NCBI GenBank assembly: GCA_964434705.1
Contig: CAYSVY010000012.1
Span: 13,252-77,251, forward strand
DNA: 64,000 bases
Origin: an uncultured Flavobacteriaceae bacterium
Lineage (GTDB): Bacteria > Bacteroidota > Bacteroidia > Flavobacteriales > Flavobacteriaceae
Direction: 5' to 3'
The notes under the pieces are model-generated. The model had not been told where the DNA came from. It saw only the letters and a list, made by a program, of their open reading frames with translations, and searched no databases. The position numbers and the translations under genes were made by a program. Positions 2,143 to 44,502 of this stretch are shown here, in pieces; position 1 is the first letter of the stretch, and every line of letters starts with the position of its first letter.

Positions 2143-2182
2143 ACTTCTTACTTCTCACTTGATACTTCTAACTTTAAAAACT
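2143..2182. repeat. Degenerate heptamer tandem array (ACTT core, 5 units)
   Basis: ACTT at 2143, 2150, 2157, 2164, 2171 (exact 7-bp period). Confidence 0.8.
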
Positions 2183-2189
2183 ATCTTTG
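2182..2189 (+). promoter_or_regulatory. Bacteroidota housekeeping -7 box (TATCTTTG) of smpB
   Basis: Matches TAnnTTTG consensus, 6 nt before ATG 2196. Confidence 0.7.
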
Positions 2190-2195
2190 CCCACC

Positions 2196-10345: not shown

Positions 10346-11233
10346 ATGAAAAACATAGCAGTTATTGGTGCTGGTACTATGGGAAATGGTATTGCACACA
10401 CCTTTGCACAATCTGGATTCAAGGTAAATTTAATAGACATTAGTGAAGCGTCACTAGAACGTGGATTGGCTACCATTTCTAAAAATTTGGATAGAATGGT
10501 TGCTAAAGAAAAAATAAGTGAAGCCAACAAAGCAGAAACTTTAAATAACATTACCACATTTACCGACTCAACAGCTGGCGTTACCAATACTGATTTGGTG
10601 GTGGAAGCGGCCACGGAAAATTTAGACCTAAAGCTTAAAATATTTAAACAACTTGATGACGTTTGTGCAGAAGACACCATTCTGGCTACAAACACATCAT
10701 CAATATCTATTACGCAAATTGCTTCGGTAACATCGCGACCTGAAAAAGTGATTGGCATGCACTTTATGAATCCAGTTCCTATAATGAAACTGGTAGAAAT
10801 TATTCGTGGTTACAATACGTCGGACGACGTAACAAATACCATAATGGAACTCTCCAAAACCTTGGGCAAAGTGCCTACGGAAGTTAATGATTACCCAGGT
10901 TTTGTCGCCAATCGTATTCTAATGCCAATGCTCAACGAAGCTATTGAATCATTGTACAATGGCGTTGCTGGTGTTAGTGAAATTGATACCGTAATGAAGT
11001 TAGGAATGGCGCACCCAATGGGACCACTACAATTGGCAGATTTTATTGGTTTAGATGTGTGTTTGTCTATTTTAAACGTGATGTACGATGGTTTTAAAAA
11101 CCCAAAATATGCGCCATGTCCGTTGTTGGTAAATATGGTTATGGCAGGTAAACTCGGTGTAAAATCTGGTGAAGGTTTTTATGATTATTCCGAAAGTCGA
11201 AAGGCTGAAAAAATTTCGAAGCAGTTTGTCTAG
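10346..11233 (+). CDS. hbd: 3-hydroxybutyryl-CoA dehydrogenase
   Basis: GAGTMGNGIA, VEAATE, ATNTSSISI, GMHFMNPVP, PMGPLQLADFIGLD. Confidence 0.9.
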   Translation: MKNIAVIGAGTMGNGIAHTFAQSGFKVNLIDISEASLERGLATISKNLDRMVAKEKISEANKAETLNNITTFTDSTAGVTNTDLVVEAATENLDLKLKIFKQLDDVCAEDTILATNTSSISITQIASVTSRPEKVIGMHFMNPVPIMKLVEIIRGYNTSDDVTNTIMELSKTLGKVPTEVNDYPGFVANRILMPMLNEAIESLYNGVAGVSEIDTVMKLGMAHPMGPLQLADFIGLDVCLSILNVMYDGFKNPKYAPCPLLVNMVMAGKLGVKSGEGFYDYSESRKAEKISKQFV

Positions 11234-11309
11234 TATGCAGTAAGCAGTTGCAGTTGACAGTTTATTAAAAATAGTTGACTGATGACTGCAAACTAAAAAC
11301 TAAAAGCTA
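11231..11309. repeat. Two-armed degenerate heptamer array (CAGT arm / ACTG arm, inverted)
   Basis: YAGT at 11231, 11238, 11245, 11251, 11258; ACTR at 11278, 11285, 11292, 11299. Confidence 0.8.
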
Positions 11310-12547
11310 TGGCCAAAGTAAAACCTTTTAAAGCAGTCCGTCCAACTCGCGCTATTGTGGGTTTGGTGGCGTCGCGTCCGTATGACAGCTATACTGTTGA
11401 TGAACGCGAATCGCGGATGGATTACAACCCGTATAGTTTTTTGCATATTGTAAATCCTGGTTACAAATATGACCAAGTGATTACTGGTGAAGAACGCTAT
11501 AAATTAGTACGAAACAGGTATTTGGAATTTAAAGAAGATGGCGTTTTTGTTCAAGATGAAAAACCGTCGCTTTACGTTTATAAAATTGTAAATCGTCATG
11601 GGCAAGTGTTTAATGGTATCATTGGCGCCACAAGTGCTGAAGATTATAAAAACAATGTCATAAAAAAGCACGAAGATACTATTGCCAAACGCGAAGAAAC
11701 CTTTAAAACCTACCTAAAAACAGTTGGCTTTAATGCAGAACCTGTGCTTCTTACCTATCCGGATAATACAGTTATTGCACAAATTATATCGGACGTACAA
11801 AAACAACATGCCGAGTTTGAGTTTACCATGACTTACCGTGATACGCACTATTTATGGAAAATCGACGATGACGAACAGTTGAAAACAATTCAACAGGAAT
11901 TTGAAAATATAGCAACGCTATATATTGCCGATGGCCATCATAGGTCGGCATCATCGGCTTTATTGGCGCAAAATGAATCGGAAGCAAACCCAAACCATTC
12001 AGGTTTGGAATCTTATAATTTCTTTATGTCGTATTTAATACCGGAATCGGATTTGGTAATTCATGAATTTAGCCGATTGGTGAAAGACTTAAACGGACTT
12101 TCAAAAGAAGAATTTTTAATTCAGTTAGACGCTGTTTTCAGAATAGAAAATCGCGGAGCTGTTCCGTATCATCCATCAAAACCGCATCATTTTAGCATGT
12201 ATTTAGATGGTGAGTTTTATTCGTTATACCTCAGAAAAACCCGTTACACGTTTGAAAACGCCTTAGATAAATTAGATGCGCAATTGCTATACAAAACAAT
12301 ACTGCAACCCATTTTGGGCATTGAGGATTTACGTAACAACAACCGTATTGAATACGTTAATGGCAGGCACGAAATGATTACAATTAAAAGCAGTGTCGAT
12401 TCGGGAAATTTTAAAGTGGGCTTTGGTATGATTCCTGCAACGGTAAACCAAATTAAACAAATTGCTGATGAAGGTTTAAAAATGCCACCAAAAAGCACTT
12501 ATATTTTGCCAAAGCTTAGAAGTGGTATTACGATATATGAATTTTAG
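11309..12547 (+). CDS. DUF1015 family protein
   Basis: PFKAVRP, IKKHEDT, YIADGHHRSAS, MPPKSTYILPKLRSG. Confidence 0.9.
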   Translation: MAKVKPFKAVRPTRAIVGLVASRPYDSYTVDERESRMDYNPYSFLHIVNPGYKYDQVITGEERYKLVRNRYLEFKEDGVFVQDEKPSLYVYKIVNRHGQVFNGIIGATSAEDYKNNVIKKHEDTIAKREETFKTYLKTVGFNAEPVLLTYPDNTVIAQIISDVQKQHAEFEFTMTYRDTHYLWKIDDDEQLKTIQQEFENIATLYIADGHHRSASSALLAQNESEANPNHSGLESYNFFMSYLIPESDLVIHEFSRLVKDLNGLSKEEFLIQLDAVFRIENRGAVPYHPSKPHHFSMYLDGEFYSLYLRKTRYTFENALDKLDAQLLYKTILQPILGIEDLRNNNRIEYVNGRHEMITIKSSVDSGNFKVGFGMIPATVNQIKQIADEGLKMPPKSTYILPKLRSGITIYEF

Positions 12548-12611
12548 ATTAGACTTTTAGACCGCTTTGCTTTTAGATTATTAGACAAAAGACTATAAAC
12601 AGACGATTAGA
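12544..12611. repeat. Degenerate TTAGA short-period array
   Basis: TTAGA at 12544, 12549, 12557, 12573, 12581, 12607; irregular 5-8 bp spacing. Confidence 0.55.
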
Positions 12612-12627
12612 AAAAATATCTGTAAGT

Positions 12628-12649
12628 TGTCACCTTGAGCGCAGTCGAA
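12628..12649 (+). repeat. REP-like element TGTCACCTTGAGCGCAGTCGAA
   Basis: Near-identical to copies at 42038-42063, 49171-49192 and 49222-49243. Confidence 0.8.
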
Positions 12650-12684
12650 TGGTCTTATTAGCTTGATTAATATTTTAGAACAAA

Positions 12685-13353
12685 ATGTACATAAAACAAA
12701 ACCTTAATAACATAAAATCTTCCATTCCTGAAAACGTTACACTTGTAGCGGTTTCCAAAACAAAACCCGTTAGCGATTTAATGGAAGCCTACAATTCTGG
12801 TCAGCGCGTATTTGGCGAAAATAAAATTCAGGAAATGACTGAAAAATATGAGCACCTACCAAAAGATATTGAGTGGCATATGATTGGCCATGTACAACGC
12901 AACAAGGTAAAATATATGGCAGAGTTTGTAAGTTTAATTCATGCTGTAGATAGCTTAAGATTACTACAAGAAATAAACAAACAAGCTCAGAAACATAATC
13001 GGGTTATCAATTGTTTACTTCAAATAAAAATAGCGCAAGAAGACAGCAAATTTGGAATGGAAGCCAATGAAGCTTCTACTCTACTACAATCCGAAGCATT
13101 AACTGAATTTCAGAACATTAAAATAGTTGGGCTTATGGGCATGGCAACATTTACCAAAGATATGGCTCAGGTTAAATCTGAATTTGAGTTTTTGAAAAAT
13201 ACATTCGATGAGCTTAAACAACTCAAAACTCAAAACTCAGAACTCAGAACTCTAAGTATGGGCATGAGTGGCGATTACCAATTGGCTATTGACTGTGGAA
13301 GCAACATGATTCGCGTTGGAAGTAGTATATTTGGATCAAGAAATTATTCTTAA
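12685..13353 (+). CDS. yggS: YggS family pyridoxal-phosphate homeostasis protein
   Basis: LVAVSKT, FGENKIQE, WHMIGHVQRNK, LSMGMSGDY, MIRVGSSIFG. Confidence 0.95.
   Translation: MYIKQNLNNIKSSIPENVTLVAVSKTKPVSDLMEAYNSGQRVFGENKIQEMTEKYEHLPKDIEWHMIGHVQRNKVKYMAEFVSLIHAVDSLRLLQEINKQAQKHNRVINCLLQIKIAQEDSKFGMEANEASTLLQSEALTEFQNIKIVGLMGMATFTKDMAQVKSEFEFLKNTFDELKQLKTQNSELRTLSMGMSGDYQLAIDCGSNMIRVGSSIFGSRNYS
13220..13254 (+). repeat. Intragenic heptamer array (AACTCAR x5) in yggS
   Basis: AACTCAA AACTCAA AACTCAG AACTCAG AACTCTA. Confidence 0.9.
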
Positions 13354-13433
13354 GTAAGTAGTGTAAAGTAGTTAGTTTTGCTAGTCGTCAAAAACTTTTT
13401 ACTTTACACTTTTAAACTTTACACTATTCAGCT
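13353..13433. repeat. Two-armed degenerate heptamer array (AGT arm / ACT arm, inverted)
   Basis: AGT at 13353, 13360, 13367, 13374; ACT at 13394, 13401, 13408, 13416, 13423. Confidence 0.75.
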
Positions 13434-14795
13434 ATCTACGCAATACTCGACATAGAAACCACTGGCGGAAAGTACAATGAAGAAGGCATTACCGAGATTG
13501 CTATTTACCAATTTGATGGTCATAAAATCACTGACCAATTTATTAGCTTAGTAAATCCTGAACGTGACATTCAACCTTTCGTTGTTAACCTTACAGGTAT
13601 CAACAATAAAATGTTACGCAATGCACCAAAATTTTATGAGGTAGCCAAACGTATTGTTGAAATTACCGAAAACTGCATCATAGTTGCACACAATTCGGAA
13701 TTTGATTATCGGATATTAAAGACTGAATTTAAACGACTTGGCTTTCCGTTTAAACGCAAAACATTGTGTACGGTTGAACTTGCAAAGCAGTTAATACCAG
13801 ATATGCCATCGTACAGTTTGGGCAAATTATCGCGTGCGTTAGGTATAGCCATGAGCGACAGACATCGCGCTGATGGTGATGCTAAAGCAACCGTTAAACT
13901 CTTCAAATTATTACTAAGTAAAGATTCAAAAAAAGAAATAATTAAAGCTTCGGTTAAGGTTGAACAGAAATCAAAAATAGCTTCAAACCTCAGAACCATT
14001 ATTGACGAAATGCCATCGGATACAGGTGTGTATTACATTCATAACGACGCTGGCGATATTATTTATATTGGCAAAAGCAACAATATTAGAAAACGCATCA
14101 CGCAACACTTTACCAATTCAAACTCAAAATCAAAAAAAATTCAGGCATTAGTGGCATCAGTTTCCTTTGAAAAAACTGGGAGCGAACTCGTTGCTCTTTT
14201 AAAAGAAAGTGAAGAAATAAAGAAAAACAAACCCATTTTAAACAGAGCTTTAAAACGAAATAAATTCACCCAAGGTTTATATAGTTTTACAGATGATAAT
14301 GGTTATGTAAACTTACGCATCAATCACCTTAAACAAAACGAAAAACCAATTACAACCTTTACCAACAGGCAAAGTGGTATTTCGTTTATAAACCGAATGA
14401 TTGAAGATTATGAACTTTGCCCAAAATTGTGCGGTATTCAAAAATCGGAAACCAGTTGCTTTAACTACCACATAAAAGAATGTCATGGTGCTTGTATTAA
14501 AGAAGAATCTGCTGAGATATACAATAAACGCGCAAACGCTGTTATTCAAAAAAATAGCTACGACAATAAAAATATGGTACTCATAGATCGTGGTCGTGAT
14601 ATCGAGGAAAAAAGTGTAATACTAGTTGAAAATGGTACGTTTAAAGGTTTGGGGTTTTATGACTTAAATCATCAAATAAACAATATAGAGATATTACATT
14701 CGCTTATAACTCCGATGCAAAATAACAGAGATACGCAACATATTATTCAGAGCTATATGCGAAGAAATAAAAGACTCAAAATTATACAATTATAA
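13434..14795 (+). CDS. DEDDh 3'-5' exonuclease (Pol III epsilon-like) + GIY-YIG (UvrC-like) domain protein; inferred non-canonical ATC start
   Basis: In-frame IYAILDIETTGGKYNEEGITEIA upstream of ORF-track ATG 13611; AHNSEFD, HRADGDA, GVYYIH...YIGKS. Confidence 0.85.
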   Translation: MYAILDIETTGGKYNEEGITEIAIYQFDGHKITDQFISLVNPERDIQPFVVNLTGINNKMLRNAPKFYEVAKRIVEITENCIIVAHNSEFDYRILKTEFKRLGFPFKRKTLCTVELAKQLIPDMPSYSLGKLSRALGIAMSDRHRADGDAKATVKLFKLLLSKDSKKEIIKASVKVEQKSKIASNLRTIIDEMPSDTGVYYIHNDAGDIIYIGKSNNIRKRITQHFTNSNSKSKKIQALVASVSFEKTGSELVALLKESEEIKKNKPILNRALKRNKFTQGLYSFTDDNGYVNLRINHLKQNEKPITTFTNRQSGISFINRMIEDYELCPKLCGIQKSETSCFNYHIKECHGACIKEESAEIYNKRANAVIQKNSYDNKNMVLIDRGRDIEEKSVILVENGTFKGLGFYDLNHQINNIEILHSLITPMQNNRDTQHIIQSYMRRNKRLKIIQL

Positions 14796-41483: not shown

Positions 41484-41511
41484 AAATCGTTAATCATAAA
41501 TCGTCAATCTT
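41484..41511. repeat. Heptamer array (AATC x4) overlapping prmC stop
   Basis: AAATCGT TAATCAT AAATCGT CAATCTT. Confidence 0.7.
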
Positions 41512-42420
41512 AGTTCCACTTAACATTCTTTCATTACCATTTAAATCTTTCCGTAATTCTATAGTTTTAAAGTTGAAATCCTTTAATAATTGTTTTGTCT
41601 CATTGCCAAGATACTGATTGATTTCGAAAAACAATTGCCCGTTGGGTTTCAAATATTTTGATGCGAAGTTGGCTATCGCATCATAGAACACTAACGGATT
41701 ATTGTCTTTAACAAAAAGTGCCAAATGCGGTTCGTAGTCTAACACATTAGGTTTAATTTCTGCTTTTTCAAGCTGGCGTACGTATGGTGGATTTGATACG
41801 ATTATATCAAATTCCAAATTTTCAAAAAACAAATTCCAATTTAAAGTATCGCGTATGTCTGCTTTGATAAATTCGATATTTACATTATTTAGTTGTGCAT
41901 TTTGCTTTGCGACTTTTAGGGCTTCGTCAGATATATCCAGAGCATAGATTTTAGCATTGGGCAAATACTTAGCCAAACTTATGGCTATACATCCTGAACC
42001 TGTGCCAACATCAAAAATATTAAGTTGGTTTTGAAGAGACTTCTCGACTGCGCTCGAAGTAACAGCAAACTTTTGACTTTTAACTTTTAACTTTAAACTT
42101 TGAATCATCCAGTTGACTAATTCTTCTGTTTCTTGACGTGGTATTAATACGTGTTTATTTACTTTAAATTTTAAACCATAAAATTCTGTTTCGCCTAAAA
42201 TATATTGAATGGGTTCGTTATTTTTTAGACGGTTAAGTGTTTTAAAAACCGTATCGTATTCGTTTTTTGAAATTGTGAATTCTGGCTGTAAAATCAATTG
42301 AATTCTGGGAAAATCAAAATAAAATTCAGTACAAATAAAAAAGATAGACTCTACTTCTTCTCTACCGTAAATGGCATTCAGTTCGTTATGAAAAATTATT
42401 TTTAAATCCGTAATTTTCAT
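41494..42420 (-). CDS. prmC: Peptide chain release factor N5-glutamine methyltransferase
   Basis: EPIQYILG, VLIPRQETEEL, DVGTGSGCIA, SNPPY, EPHLALF. Confidence 0.95.
   Translation of the reverse strand: MKITDLKIIFHNELNAIYGREEVESIFFICTEFYFDFPRIQLILQPEFTISKNEYDTVFKTLNRLKNNEPIQYILGETEFYGLKFKVNKHVLIPRQETEELVNWMIQSLKLKVKSQKFAVTSSAVEKSLQNQLNIFDVGTGSGCIAISLAKYLPNAKIYALDISDEALKVAKQNAQLNNVNIEFIKADIRDTLNWNLFFENLEFDIIVSNPPYVRQLEKAEIKPNVLDYEPHLALFVKDNNPLVFYDAIANFASKYLKPNGQLFFEINQYLGNETKQLLKDFNFKTIELRKDLNGNERMLSGTKIDDL
42038..42103 (-). repeat. In-frame composite insert in prmC: heptamer array (42069-42103) + REP copy (42038-42063)
   Basis: ACTTTTG ACTTTTA ACTTTTA ACTTTAA ACTTTGA; minus strand GTTACTTCGAGCGCAGTCGAGAAGTC. 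Confidence 0.85.
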
Positions 42421-43425: not shown

Positions 43426-44502
43426 GTGTCGACCAACGAAACTTATATAAAACGTGCGTTGCAGATTGCCAAAAACGGTTTAGGTACTACACGACCAAAC
43501 CCAATAGTTGGCGCTGTTATTGTATATGACGGTAAGATTATTGGCGAAGGTTTTACCAATCCGTATGGCGGACCACATGCCGAAGTTAATGCCATTAATG
43601 CGGTTAAAGATAAATCGCTTTTAAAAAACAGCACGCTCTACGTAACGTTAGAGCCATGCAGTCATTTTGGAAAAACTCCACCATGTAGCGATTTAATTAT
43701 TGCACATAAGATTCCAAAAGTTGTTATAGGTTGTATTGATGATAATCCTGAAGTTGCTGGCAAAGGCATTGCAAAATTAAAAGCTTCAGGTTGCGAAGTT
43801 ATTGTTGGTGTTTTGGAAAATGAATGTAAAGCACACCATAAACGCTTTTTCACATTTCATACAAAAAAACGTCCTTATATTATTTTAAAATGGGCTGAAA
43901 CAAAAGATGGATTTATTGCGCCAACTTCAAAAGAAGGACAACAACCTGTTTGGATTACAAACAGCTATTCGCGCCAATTGGTCCATAAATGGCGTGCCGA
44001 GGAACACGCTATTTTAGTAGGCACCAATACTGCTATTGAAGACAATCCAAGCTTAACGGTTAGAGATTGGACAGGATTAAATCCTACTCGCGTGGTTTTG
44101 GATAGGGCATTGAAATTGGATAAGAGCTATTCTGTTTTTGATGATAAGGCGAAAACGATTGTAATAACTTCCGAAAAAAATAGATTTGAGAAGTTAGAAA
44201 AGAGACATGAGAAAAAAGAGGATATCAAACAGACCTTTAAACCAATTAATTGGAAAGACAAAAATCATATAGCTCAACAAATCTGTGATGTGCTTTATAC
44301 TCAAAACATAAATTCTATCATTATTGAAGGTGGCGCGCAAACACTTCAAACTTTTATTGATGAAAATCTATGGGATGAAGCTCGTGTTTTTAAAGGAAAT
44401 ATTGAATTTAAAAATGGTGTAAAAGCGCCAAAATTAAATGGTGAATTGATTTCTGAGGAACGAATTTTGGATGATGTCTTAAAAGTTTTCATACCTGTAT
44501 AA
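43426..44502 (+). CDS. ribD: Riboflavin biosynthesis deaminase/reductase RibD
   Basis: PNPIVGAV, HAEVNAI, TLEPCSH.GKTPPC, LKWAET.DG, IEGG; GTG start. Confidence 0.95.
   Translation: MSTNETYIKRALQIAKNGLGTTRPNPIVGAVIVYDGKIIGEGFTNPYGGPHAEVNAINAVKDKSLLKNSTLYVTLEPCSHFGKTPPCSDLIIAHKIPKVVIGCIDDNPEVAGKGIAKLKASGCEVIVGVLENECKAHHKRFFTFHTKKRPYIILKWAETKDGFIAPTSKEGQQPVWITNSYSRQLVHKWRAEEHAILVGTNTAIEDNPSLTVRDWTGLNPTRVVLDRALKLDKSYSVFDDKAKTIVITSEKNRFEKLEKRHEKKEDIKQTFKPINWKDKNHIAQQICDVLYTQNINSIIIEGGAQTLQTFIDENLWDEARVFKGNIEFKNGVKAPKLNGELISEERILDDVLKVFIPV
44181..44222 (+). repeat. Intragenic heptamer array (nAGAnnn x6) in ribD
   Basis: TAGATTT GAGAAGT TAGAAAA GAGACAT GAGAAAA AAGAGGA. Confidence 0.65.

Follow-up and report, generated by a model that had tools for sequence, protein, structure and literature searches.

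Gene-less hairpin modules with heptamer arms in a Winogradskyella operon are probable relatives of intervening-sequence-like four-helix-bundle cassettes

Tandem arrays of seven-nucleotide units lie between the genes of several bacterial groups, and their origin and function have been left open (PMC4679880, PMC4692102). Rehm et al. described intergenic arrays of GGGAATC in Xanthomonas and of GGGGA(C/T)T in Nostoc, often arranged as convergent pairs able to form stem-loops, with the G-rich strand on the coding strand 0-50 nucleotides (nt) past a stop codon or overlapping it and the C-rich strand before starts (PMC4692102). Direct repeats of TAACTGA occur in Beggiatoaceae, Cyanobacteria, and a few Bacteroidetes, where a translational regulator has been suggested to bind them, and other intergenic heptamer repeats occur in the Flavobacteriaceae Gramella forsetii and Aequorivita (PMC4679880); that paper cites Mrazek (2007) for the view that slippage of DNA polymerase favours 7-nt units. 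Heptamers also occur within ribosomal RNA, as in the 23S rRNA of Coxiella burnetii, where a 28-bp stem that includes tandem heptamers encloses a gene of the PF05635 family and is cut by RNase III at the first repeat (PMC4990558). Here we examine a 64,000-nt stretch of DNA (the window) from an uncultured Winogradskyella (contig CAYSVY010000012.1 of assembly GCA_964434705.1; genome G000, 3.17 Mb in 71 contigs, 35.9% GC, 96% complete), in which paired heptamer arrays at 11231-11305 and 13351-13427 separate consecutive genes of an operon. We consider these pairs to be, probably but with real room for doubt, gene-less hairpin modules of the same element system as cassettes found in other Winogradskyella (hereafter congeners), where heptamer arms enclose a gene for a four-helix-bundle protein, and to be built like the intervening sequences (IVS) of 23S rRNA that carry an open reading frame (ORF). 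The over-representation of heptamers, paired polar heptamer arrays, and an rRNA IVS with a PF05635-family gene are already in print; added here are an allele series at one junction, polarity statistics, and a family-wide correlation between genes and arrays that is controlled for insertion sequence (IS) load. No link between intergenic heptamer arrays and the PF05635/TIGR02436 family was found in the searchable literature library.

The region 11222-13433 of the window spans three successive junctions in a cluster of co-oriented genes, namely junction 1 (between hbd and DUF1015), junction 2 (between DUF1015 and yggS), and junction 3 (between yggS and an exonuclease gene). The DUF1015 locus was taken from 29 congeners and the three junctions were inspected (G-numbers denote genomes and L-numbers the fetched loci of relatives). 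At junction 1 of the window, the TAG stop codon of hbd (11231-11233) is itself the first unit of the left arm. The sequence-only reading had supposed that such two-armed loci might be empty sites or scars of a small mobile cassette, and had named four-helix-bundle genes among those that might fill orthologous junctions. At junction 1 this expectation was borne out. Seven of the 29 congeners (L007, L013, L014, L016, L021, L022, and L024) carry an intact gene for a protein of 123-126 amino acids (aa) between the arms, flanked on the left by an AGT-type array whose first unit lies in the stop codon of hbd and on the right by an ACT-type array ending at the DUF1015 ATG. The product belongs to the TIGR02436/PF05635 four-helix-bundle family of 23S rRNA intervening-sequence proteins (TIGR02436 E 5.6e-28) and also gives a weak match to Avd. 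Two further alleles are decayed, one with the gene cut to 15 codons together with 13 copies of AGTGTCT (L009) and one with the gene broken by a stop codon (L019), while a scar (L020) retains only the 3' end of the gene and the right arm, and L017, in genome G028, has arms only. Six species (L006, L010, L011, L015, L018, and L025) have instead a gene of ~650 bp for an M23-family peptidase lipoprotein, accompanied in L018 by a left arm; seven have junctions of 6-35 nt without arms (at most 21 nt in six of them), and in five the junction is occupied by different short inserts (60-246 nt) that have no heptamer arms. Neither loop of the window (11264-11276 and 13379-13392) holds a PF05635/TIGR02436 gene, which was found only at the orthologous junctions of the seven congeners. 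The filled, decayed, and scar alleles at the orthologous junction thus point to the window junction as an arms-only allele of an IVS-like cassette, and for the module at junction 1, loss of the gene from a cassette and an origin as an arms-only copy, never filled, appear about equally probable.

Arm types at junction 1 differ by clade (CAGTGGT/ACTGAAY, AAGTGTG/ACTTTTC, AGTGTCT, and TTAGTC/TCTAAA) and are complementary within each locus, and the unit copy number ranges from 3 to 13 among orthologous junctions. At junction 3, a different two-armed module is present in G035 and a right arm in G019. Several observations concern the turnover of such junctions. At junction 1, the four-helix-bundle cassette is present in G035 and the M23 peptidase gene in G033 and G027, the closest relatives of G035, indicating that the junction has been rewritten between close relatives. 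At a junction 5' of a thiolase gene, L059 and L067 on the one hand and L080 on the other hold non-orthologous four-helix-bundle genes according to species, with flanks that align and genes that do not, which suggests that one cassette may have replaced another. Palindromic elements not built of heptamers occur at junction 1 of L005 and L026 and at L119:6800-6870 (e.g., GATTGCCACGC...GCGTGCAATGAC between hbd and DUF1015).

Hairpin folding of the junctions was scored against 200 dinucleotide shuffles. Junction 1 gave a fold z of -2.5 (2/200 shuffles as good) and junction 3 a fold z of -2.4 (4/200), in agreement with the earlier description of their arms as reverse complements, and the arm types co-vary between orthologous junctions. 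The right arm of junction 3 contains two copies of ACTTTACACT, which reverse-complements 13360-13369. Among the cassettes of congeners, cognate arms pair at -28.9 kcal/mol compared to -19.1 kcal/mol for non-cognate arms. The junction 1 arms of G000 are of the CAGT/ACTG type, and pair with right arms of the CAGT/ACTG group at -19 to -25 kcal/mol, compared to -22 kcal/mol with their own, and poorly with those of the AAGTGT group. Strand-specific pairing through G.U wobbles was considered and rejected, with mean energies of -40.9 kcal/mol for the sense strand versus -43.3 kcal/mol for the antisense strand in one set and -28.9 versus -32.8 kcal/mol in a second. Hairpins lying directly past stop codons could in principle be intrinsic terminators or attenuators between genes. 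However, a scan for intrinsic terminators at the three junctions was negative, the stems being GC-poor and without a U-tract, the hairpins separate co-oriented genes whose spacing in relatives is only 6-8 nt, and the right arm extends up to the next start codon, so that we regard this explanation as very improbable. A search of the junctions against Rfam returned nothing beyond chance-level matches.

These features give the build of the module. A G-bearing array of 7-nt units starts in or at the upstream gene's stop codon, and a complementary C-bearing array ends 5-8 nt before the next start, with the two arrays pairing into a stem whose loop, when filled, holds a TIGR02436/PF05635 gene of ~120 aa in the orientation of the operon and in the window is empty. 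Replication slippage may alter the number of units, and either selection or templated repair inside the hairpin may maintain the complementarity of the arms. If the stem forms in the operon transcript, RNase III might cut it as it does in rRNA intervening sequences, and the RNase III gene rnc is present in G000. Alternatively, the stem may bring the stop and the next start together, in which case an insert would not uncouple the two cistrons; since the stem joins the sequence immediately past one stop codon to that immediately before the following start, it could keep the cistrons coupled across the insert.

To place these junctions in the context of the genome, period-7 arrays were called with Tandem Repeats Finder (TRF) at score thresholds of 36, 42, and 50, with block-wise dinucleotide shuffles as the control. 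G000 holds 53 period-7 arrays versus 5.8 in shuffles at a score of at least 36, 31 versus 0.0 at a score of at least 42, and 20 versus 0 at a score of at least 50, and shows no excess over shuffles at periods 5 and 8. As an internal control with fixed composition, ACT repeated four times was counted at different spacings; a spacing of 7 occurs at 33 loci in G000, whereas spacings of 5, 6, 8, 9, and 10 occur at 0-2 loci each, with no octamer ACT arrays at all. The heptamer arrays, and the excess at lag 7 that the sequence-only reading had predicted, are therefore real. Many ACT arrays with an 8-nt period were observed in four genomes of other genera (G099, G054, G057, and G137); their presence in a few other genera and absence from G000 imply that the preferred unit length differs among genera.

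The arrays of G000 are mostly intergenic (40 of the 53 TRF arrays and 30 of the 33 ACT-spaced loci) and polar. Between co-oriented genes, 10 of 13 AGT arrays on the sense strand lie within 5 nt of a stop codon and 8 of 11 ACT arrays on the sense strand lie at most 8 nt from a start codon, with the converse arrangement never found; the ACT-type arrays terminate 5-8 nt 5' of start codons. At junctions without arrays, the sequence past stop codons is not rich in G (C 15%, G 13%), and the polarity is thus a property of the elements themselves. At many junctions the stop codon is the first repeat unit. Units vary by locus and are AT-rich, with an AGT/ACT core being the commonest, and they contain no G-runs; a single consensus with G-quadruplex potential was not found. 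Small genes beside the other arrays of G000 were inspected as possible hidden cargo families, which were rejected, as the adjoining genes are all ordinary (rplS, crcB, arfB, csaA, msrB, trpG, DUF4286, DUF2147, and an IS1 fragment).

Several contigs or scaffold gaps of G000 end in perfect heptamer arrays (C1:163591-163652, C15:81372-81426, C23:46825-46879, and C24:46448-46502). These contig-end arrays, TTGGCTA x8.9, AGCCAAC x7.9, and GTTGGCT x7.9, break short-read assembly, and some arrays are therefore probably longer than assembled. The ends of C27 and C5 carry the same sequence in opposite orientation, indicating that those two contigs overlap. Breaks at long perfect arrays are one of the points in favor of neutral microsatellites, that is, arrays without function or any tie to a gene, produced because polymerase slippage favours 7-nt units and positioned by tolerance alone. 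The freedom of copy number to vary at orthologous junctions is another, and heptanucleotide repeats are the commonest long repeats in many prokaryotes (PMC4679880). In contrast, background composition does not explain the stop/start polarity, the arrays pair as complementary arms, the array load differs greatly between the close sisters G033 and G035, and the correlation described below is specific to one gene family with none to IS load. The neutral explanation is thus already disfavoured, and we hold it to be improbable.

Cassettes of this kind are widespread in the genus. When the best TIGR02436 gene of each of 30 congeners was considered, all but a few lie between such arms, the stop codon almost always being followed by a G-bearing array and a short AT-rich leader, then by the gene, and finally by a complementary C-bearing array and the next ATG, and three of the five PF05635 genes in G000 are flanked by top-scoring arrays. 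The cassettes fall into groups that share flanks, indicating that they are old residents of fixed junctions, and the arms and gene are inherited together at those loci. An unusual arrangement was observed in G017 (L052:1215-2090), where a complete gene-less hairpin, GGTGATT/AATCACG, lies between gmd and a GDP-fucose synthase gene and is followed by a four-helix-bundle gene enclosed on either side by long arrays that share one orientation; the array apparently continues into the beginning of the following gene. No nuclease cassettes of the GxxExxY type (PF13366), another class of gene suggested by the sequence-only reading, were found in G000.

The number of arrays in a genome follows the number of four-helix-bundle genes. 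Array load was counted in these comparisons as matches to ACT at spacing 7, covering ACT/AGT cores only, with counts that overlap and kinship ignored. Across 41 genomes at the genus level, it correlates with TIGR02436 gene count at a rho of 0.72, or 0.65 when genome size is controlled for, and in seven of seven sister pairs on the tree, arrays are more numerous in the member richer in such genes. In samples of ~400 kb, TRF (score of at least 42) counted 0, 1, 0, and 0 arrays for genomes having 0, 0, 1, and 1 genes, respectively, and 4 and 14 arrays for two genomes having 10. In a family-level survey of one genome from each of 151 Flavobacteriaceae genera, the rho was 0.73, with a partial value of 0.66 on genome size and IS (rve) load, and that of rve itself fell to -0.04. 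Genomes free of the four-helix-bundle gene in this survey have a median of 0 matches, and 2 of 42 have 10 or more. Among the matches listed, those flanking a four-helix-bundle gene number ~4 of 57 in G007, none in G038, and about a tenth in G000, implying that the correlation does not simply reflect the cassettes' own arms; in the inspected genomes, 90% or more of the array matches have no such gene alongside.

One explanation for this relation is a trans action of PF05635 four-helix-bundle proteins on the hairpins of heptamer arrays, which the proteins would make, spread, or preserve as one half of a two-part system comparable to REP-associated tyrosine transposases (RAYTs) and repetitive extragenic palindromic (REP) elements, in which gene-less arms, those of the window included, would be dependent, non-autonomous members. 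We offer this only as a tentative possibility. The family of 23S rRNA intervening-sequence proteins is very common, and to our knowledge it has no known function; nor do we know of any nuclease or transposase activity for a PF05635 four-helix-bundle protein. The sequence-only reading had also raised a templated synthesis of repeats, which might be envisaged as a reverse transcriptase or telomerase-like activity with an Avd-like four-helix-bundle protein as an accessory. The four-helix-bundle proteins do match the Avd model of diversity-generating retroelements weakly (E 9e-9 to 3e-3). However, no reverse transcriptase domain (PF00078/RVT_1) was found in the 96% complete G000, leaving this idea without a candidate enzyme, and no template repeat was seen, so that it did not hold up and in our judgment has next to no likelihood of being correct.

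The reverse order of events, in which the arms come first, requires closer attention. Here the arms would be self-standing palindromic simple-sequence repeats that expand through slippage at stop codons, in the manner described for Xanthomonas and Nostoc, four-helix-bundle genes would land or survive in loops that already exist, the modules of the window would never have been filled, and the correlation would reflect the number of available targets. The use of the stop codon as first unit, as if the repeats were locally seeded, and the fact that arm units are private to each locus favor this order, as do the left arm beside the M23 gene of L018 without a cassette, the arms of L017 in a genome without a detectable four-helix-bundle gene, the L052 gene that lies inside a long same-orientation array adjoining a complete gene-less hairpin, and the absence of an insert from the sister species of G000. 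On the other hand, the intermediates L009, L019, and L020 show arms-only states arising from filled ones, the near absence of arrays from genomes without the gene would be unexpected if arrays formed by themselves, and the arms and gene are co-inherited at orthologous loci. Given these data, we judge an arms-first origin to be rather unlikely, if far from negligible.

The assignment of the window modules to the cassette system must be weighed against several findings. In the DUF1015 tree, G000 lies beside G015, which has an 8-bp junction without arms, and outside the clade with filled alleles, so that an origin of the module as a scar needs either an insertion followed by loss of the gene or exchange by recombination, the alternative being a gain of arms only. 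No remnant of a gene is visible in the 13-nt loop of junction 1 in G000. No filled allele of junction 3 was found among 27 congeners, and no recent movement of cassettes between loci was detected in an all-against-all nucleotide comparison that included flanks; in copies at different loci, only the gene core aligns (68-75% nucleotide identity) and the arms are unshared. The sense strand folds no better than the antisense strand, which is equal or better, and this weighs against a purely RNA-level role. Arms or arrays also occur in genomes without a detectable four-helix-bundle gene (L017 in G028, an array at smpB everywhere, and G125 with 415 matches), and the correlations use the ACT-core pattern with overlapping counts and no phylogenetic correction. 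Regarding G125, a genome of 1.9 Mb from another genus with no PF05635 match, we observed that its 415 ACT-spacing-7 matches all derive from one conserved repeat (ACTATCA ACTAAAA ACTAATA or ACTCATA ACTCACA) at a spacing of ~84 bp on many short contigs (e.g., C17:3038-3242 and C49:1-199); this is a different, sequence-conserved dispersed repeat that is built of heptamers.

The sequence-only reading had grouped the modules with other short-period arrays in the window, and the features concerned are collected in Table 1. TRF reported period 7 for the arrays at 2143, 11290, 13220, 13401, and 42068, but did not report that at 44181 even at a score of 30, and the one at 41484 stands at chance level, a score of 31 being one at which shuffles give 129 arrays versus 188 in the real sequence. 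On the sense strand of prmC, this last array (41484-41509) has GATT-core units that overlap the stop codon and fits the polarity rule. At the right arms of junctions 1 and 3, TRF called AAACTAA x2.9 at 11290-11309 (score 33) and ACTTTAC x3.4 at 13401-13425 (score 34), respectively. Junction 2 carries a solitary run of TTAGA units at spacings of 5, 8, 16, 8, and 26 nt, which is therefore not of period 7; TRF does not report it, no complementary right arm was found between DUF1015 and yggS, and its fold z is -0.2. In L007 and L024, an ORF of ~70 aa with a signal-peptide-like start (MTKKYI...) fills junction 2, and in ten other congeners the DUF1015 and yggS genes overlap there.

Table 1. Genes, heptamer arrays, and hairpin parts at the junctions studied and at the other array loci of the window
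Feature	Position	Strand	Remarks
hbd, 3-hydroxyacyl-CoA dehydrogenase	10346..11233	+	Pfam 3HCDH_N, 3HCDH
Junction 1 left arm, AGT-core, G-bearing	11231..11263	+	AGT at 11232, 11239, 11246, 11252, 11259; begins in hbd stop
Junction 1 loop, AT-rich, 13 nt, gene-less	11264..11276	+	
Junction 1 right arm, ACT-core	11277..11305	+	ACT at 11278, 11285, 11292, 11299; terminates just 5' of DUF1015 ATG
DUF1015 gene	11309..12547	+	Pfam PF06245; ATG at 11309
Solitary left-type TTAGA run (G-bearing), unit spacing ~8 nt	12544..12611	+	First unit includes DUF1015 TAG stop
REP copy, core GAGCGCAGTCGA, independent repeat family	12630..12655	+	
yggS-type pyridoxal phosphate-binding protein gene	12685..13353	+	Pfam Ala_racemase_N
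Heptamer array in yggS, AACTCAA x4.7, near-perfect, translated	13220..13252	+	TRF score 52
Junction 3 left arm, AGT units	13351..13378	+	Units at 13353, 13360, 13367, 13374; begins in yggS TAA stop
Junction 3 loop, no gene	13379-13392		
Junction 3 right arm, ACT units	13393..13427	+	Units at 13394, 13401, 13408, 13416, 13423
Exonuclease (RNase_T) + GIY-YIG gene	13434..14795	+	Begins at ATC, no canonical in-frame start
ACTTCTT x4.6 array 5' of smpB	2143..2174	+	TRF score 36
AACTTTT x4.9 array in PrmC-like gene (gene on minus strand), adjoins REP copy, translated	42068..42101	+	TRF score 54
Weak array	41484..41509	-	TRF score 31

The idea of an empty site or scar is thus supported for 11231-11305 and only partly supported overall, given the lack of a filled allele at junction 3 and of recent movement, as well as the coding nature of the yggS array and the conservation of that at smpB. 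The arrays in yggS, prmC, and at smpB are related to the paired arms by unit period only. Those of yggS and prmC are translated arrays in tolerant loops; the (AAAACTC)n units of yggS, read through three frames, encode KTQNSEL, and shorter arrays of AAAACTC units are present in the yggS of four congeners, G000 having 9 extra nt in frame. The position of the smpB array (ACTTxxx units) is conserved genus-wide (L202-L229), directly upstream of a TAnnTTTG -7 box, and the array persists where four-helix-bundle genes are few or absent; it is a conserved promoter-proximal array and not a cassette arm. We also observed that the smpB start lies only ~7 nt past the conserved TAnnTTTG box (window 2143-2195), and this short distance suggests that the smpB mRNA is nearly leaderless. 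The reported adjacency of REP copies to three arrays is real in the window. Genome-wide in G000, however, a period-7 array is found within 60 bp of only one REP core out of 150, versus 4 expected, and an association of REPs with arrays was accordingly rejected, the adjacency in the window being incidental.

The gene that follows junction 3 showed a further peculiarity. In the window (13413-13445), the stretch from an in-frame TAA (13413-13415) to the essential YAILDIETTGG motif contains no ATG, GTG, or TTG, and in 27 of 27 congeners having junction 3 (L003-L030), the conserved block of the exonuclease/GIY-YIG gene opens with ATT, ATA, or ATC followed by TAC GCA. The lack of a canonical start together with an ATH codon in all 27 congeners indicates that a non-canonical ATH start seems to be used genus-wide.

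Taken together, the allele series, the polarity, and the 151-genus correlation tie heptamer repeats to the four-helix-bundle family and turn a descriptive puzzle into testable questions, among them whether the protein binds or shapes the arrays, and whether the stems process or couple operon transcripts. If it is true, the trans-acting model would explain both the heptamer repeats of bacteria and the role of the abundant PF05635 family. In practical terms, the arrays interrupt assemblies made from short reads and sit in housekeeping operons, even within coding loops.

When compared with described systems, the modules most resemble in build the ORF-bearing IVS of 23S rRNA, known from Leptospira and from helix 45 of Coxiella burnetii with its S23p (PMC4990558). 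In both, the loop, where filled, holds a gene of the PF05635/TIGR02436 family, complementary termini form a long stem with tandem heptamers of varying copy number, and the element can outlast decay of the gene. Unlike these, the present elements lie between protein-coding genes of operons and not in a 23S rRNA helix, their whole arms are heptamer arrays, and gene-less copies far outnumber filled ones; excision by RNase III is a feature of the rRNA system and for the present elements only a possibility. The arrays of Xanthomonas and Nostoc are similar in that period 7 is over-represented, location is mostly intergenic, the polarity is the same, and inverted pairs occur, but they use a single consensus unit with G-quadruplex potential, and PMC4692102 names no gene family, while each locus here has its own AT-rich unit, with the AGT/ACT core commonest and no G-runs. 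The TAACTGA repeats share with the present arrays ACTGA-containing heptamers in forward orientation just upstream of starts (PMC4679880), but have one fixed unit, are mostly one-armed, and have no link to a cassette. The hallmarks of miniature inverted-repeat transposable elements and transposons, namely conserved terminal inverted repeats, target-site duplication, and near-identical dispersed copies, were not found, nor was that of REPs and bacterial interspersed mosaic elements, a palindromic unit common to all copies, as the heptamer arms are private to each locus. REPs and their hairpin-forming pairs (REPINs) with RAYT transposases share one sequence per family, unlike the present arms, and the REP family of G000 itself is unrelated; they are nonetheless alike in being short palindromic intergenic repeats that are abundant or scarce according to a dedicated gene of their own genome, a relation that the present correlation suggests for the heptamer arrays.

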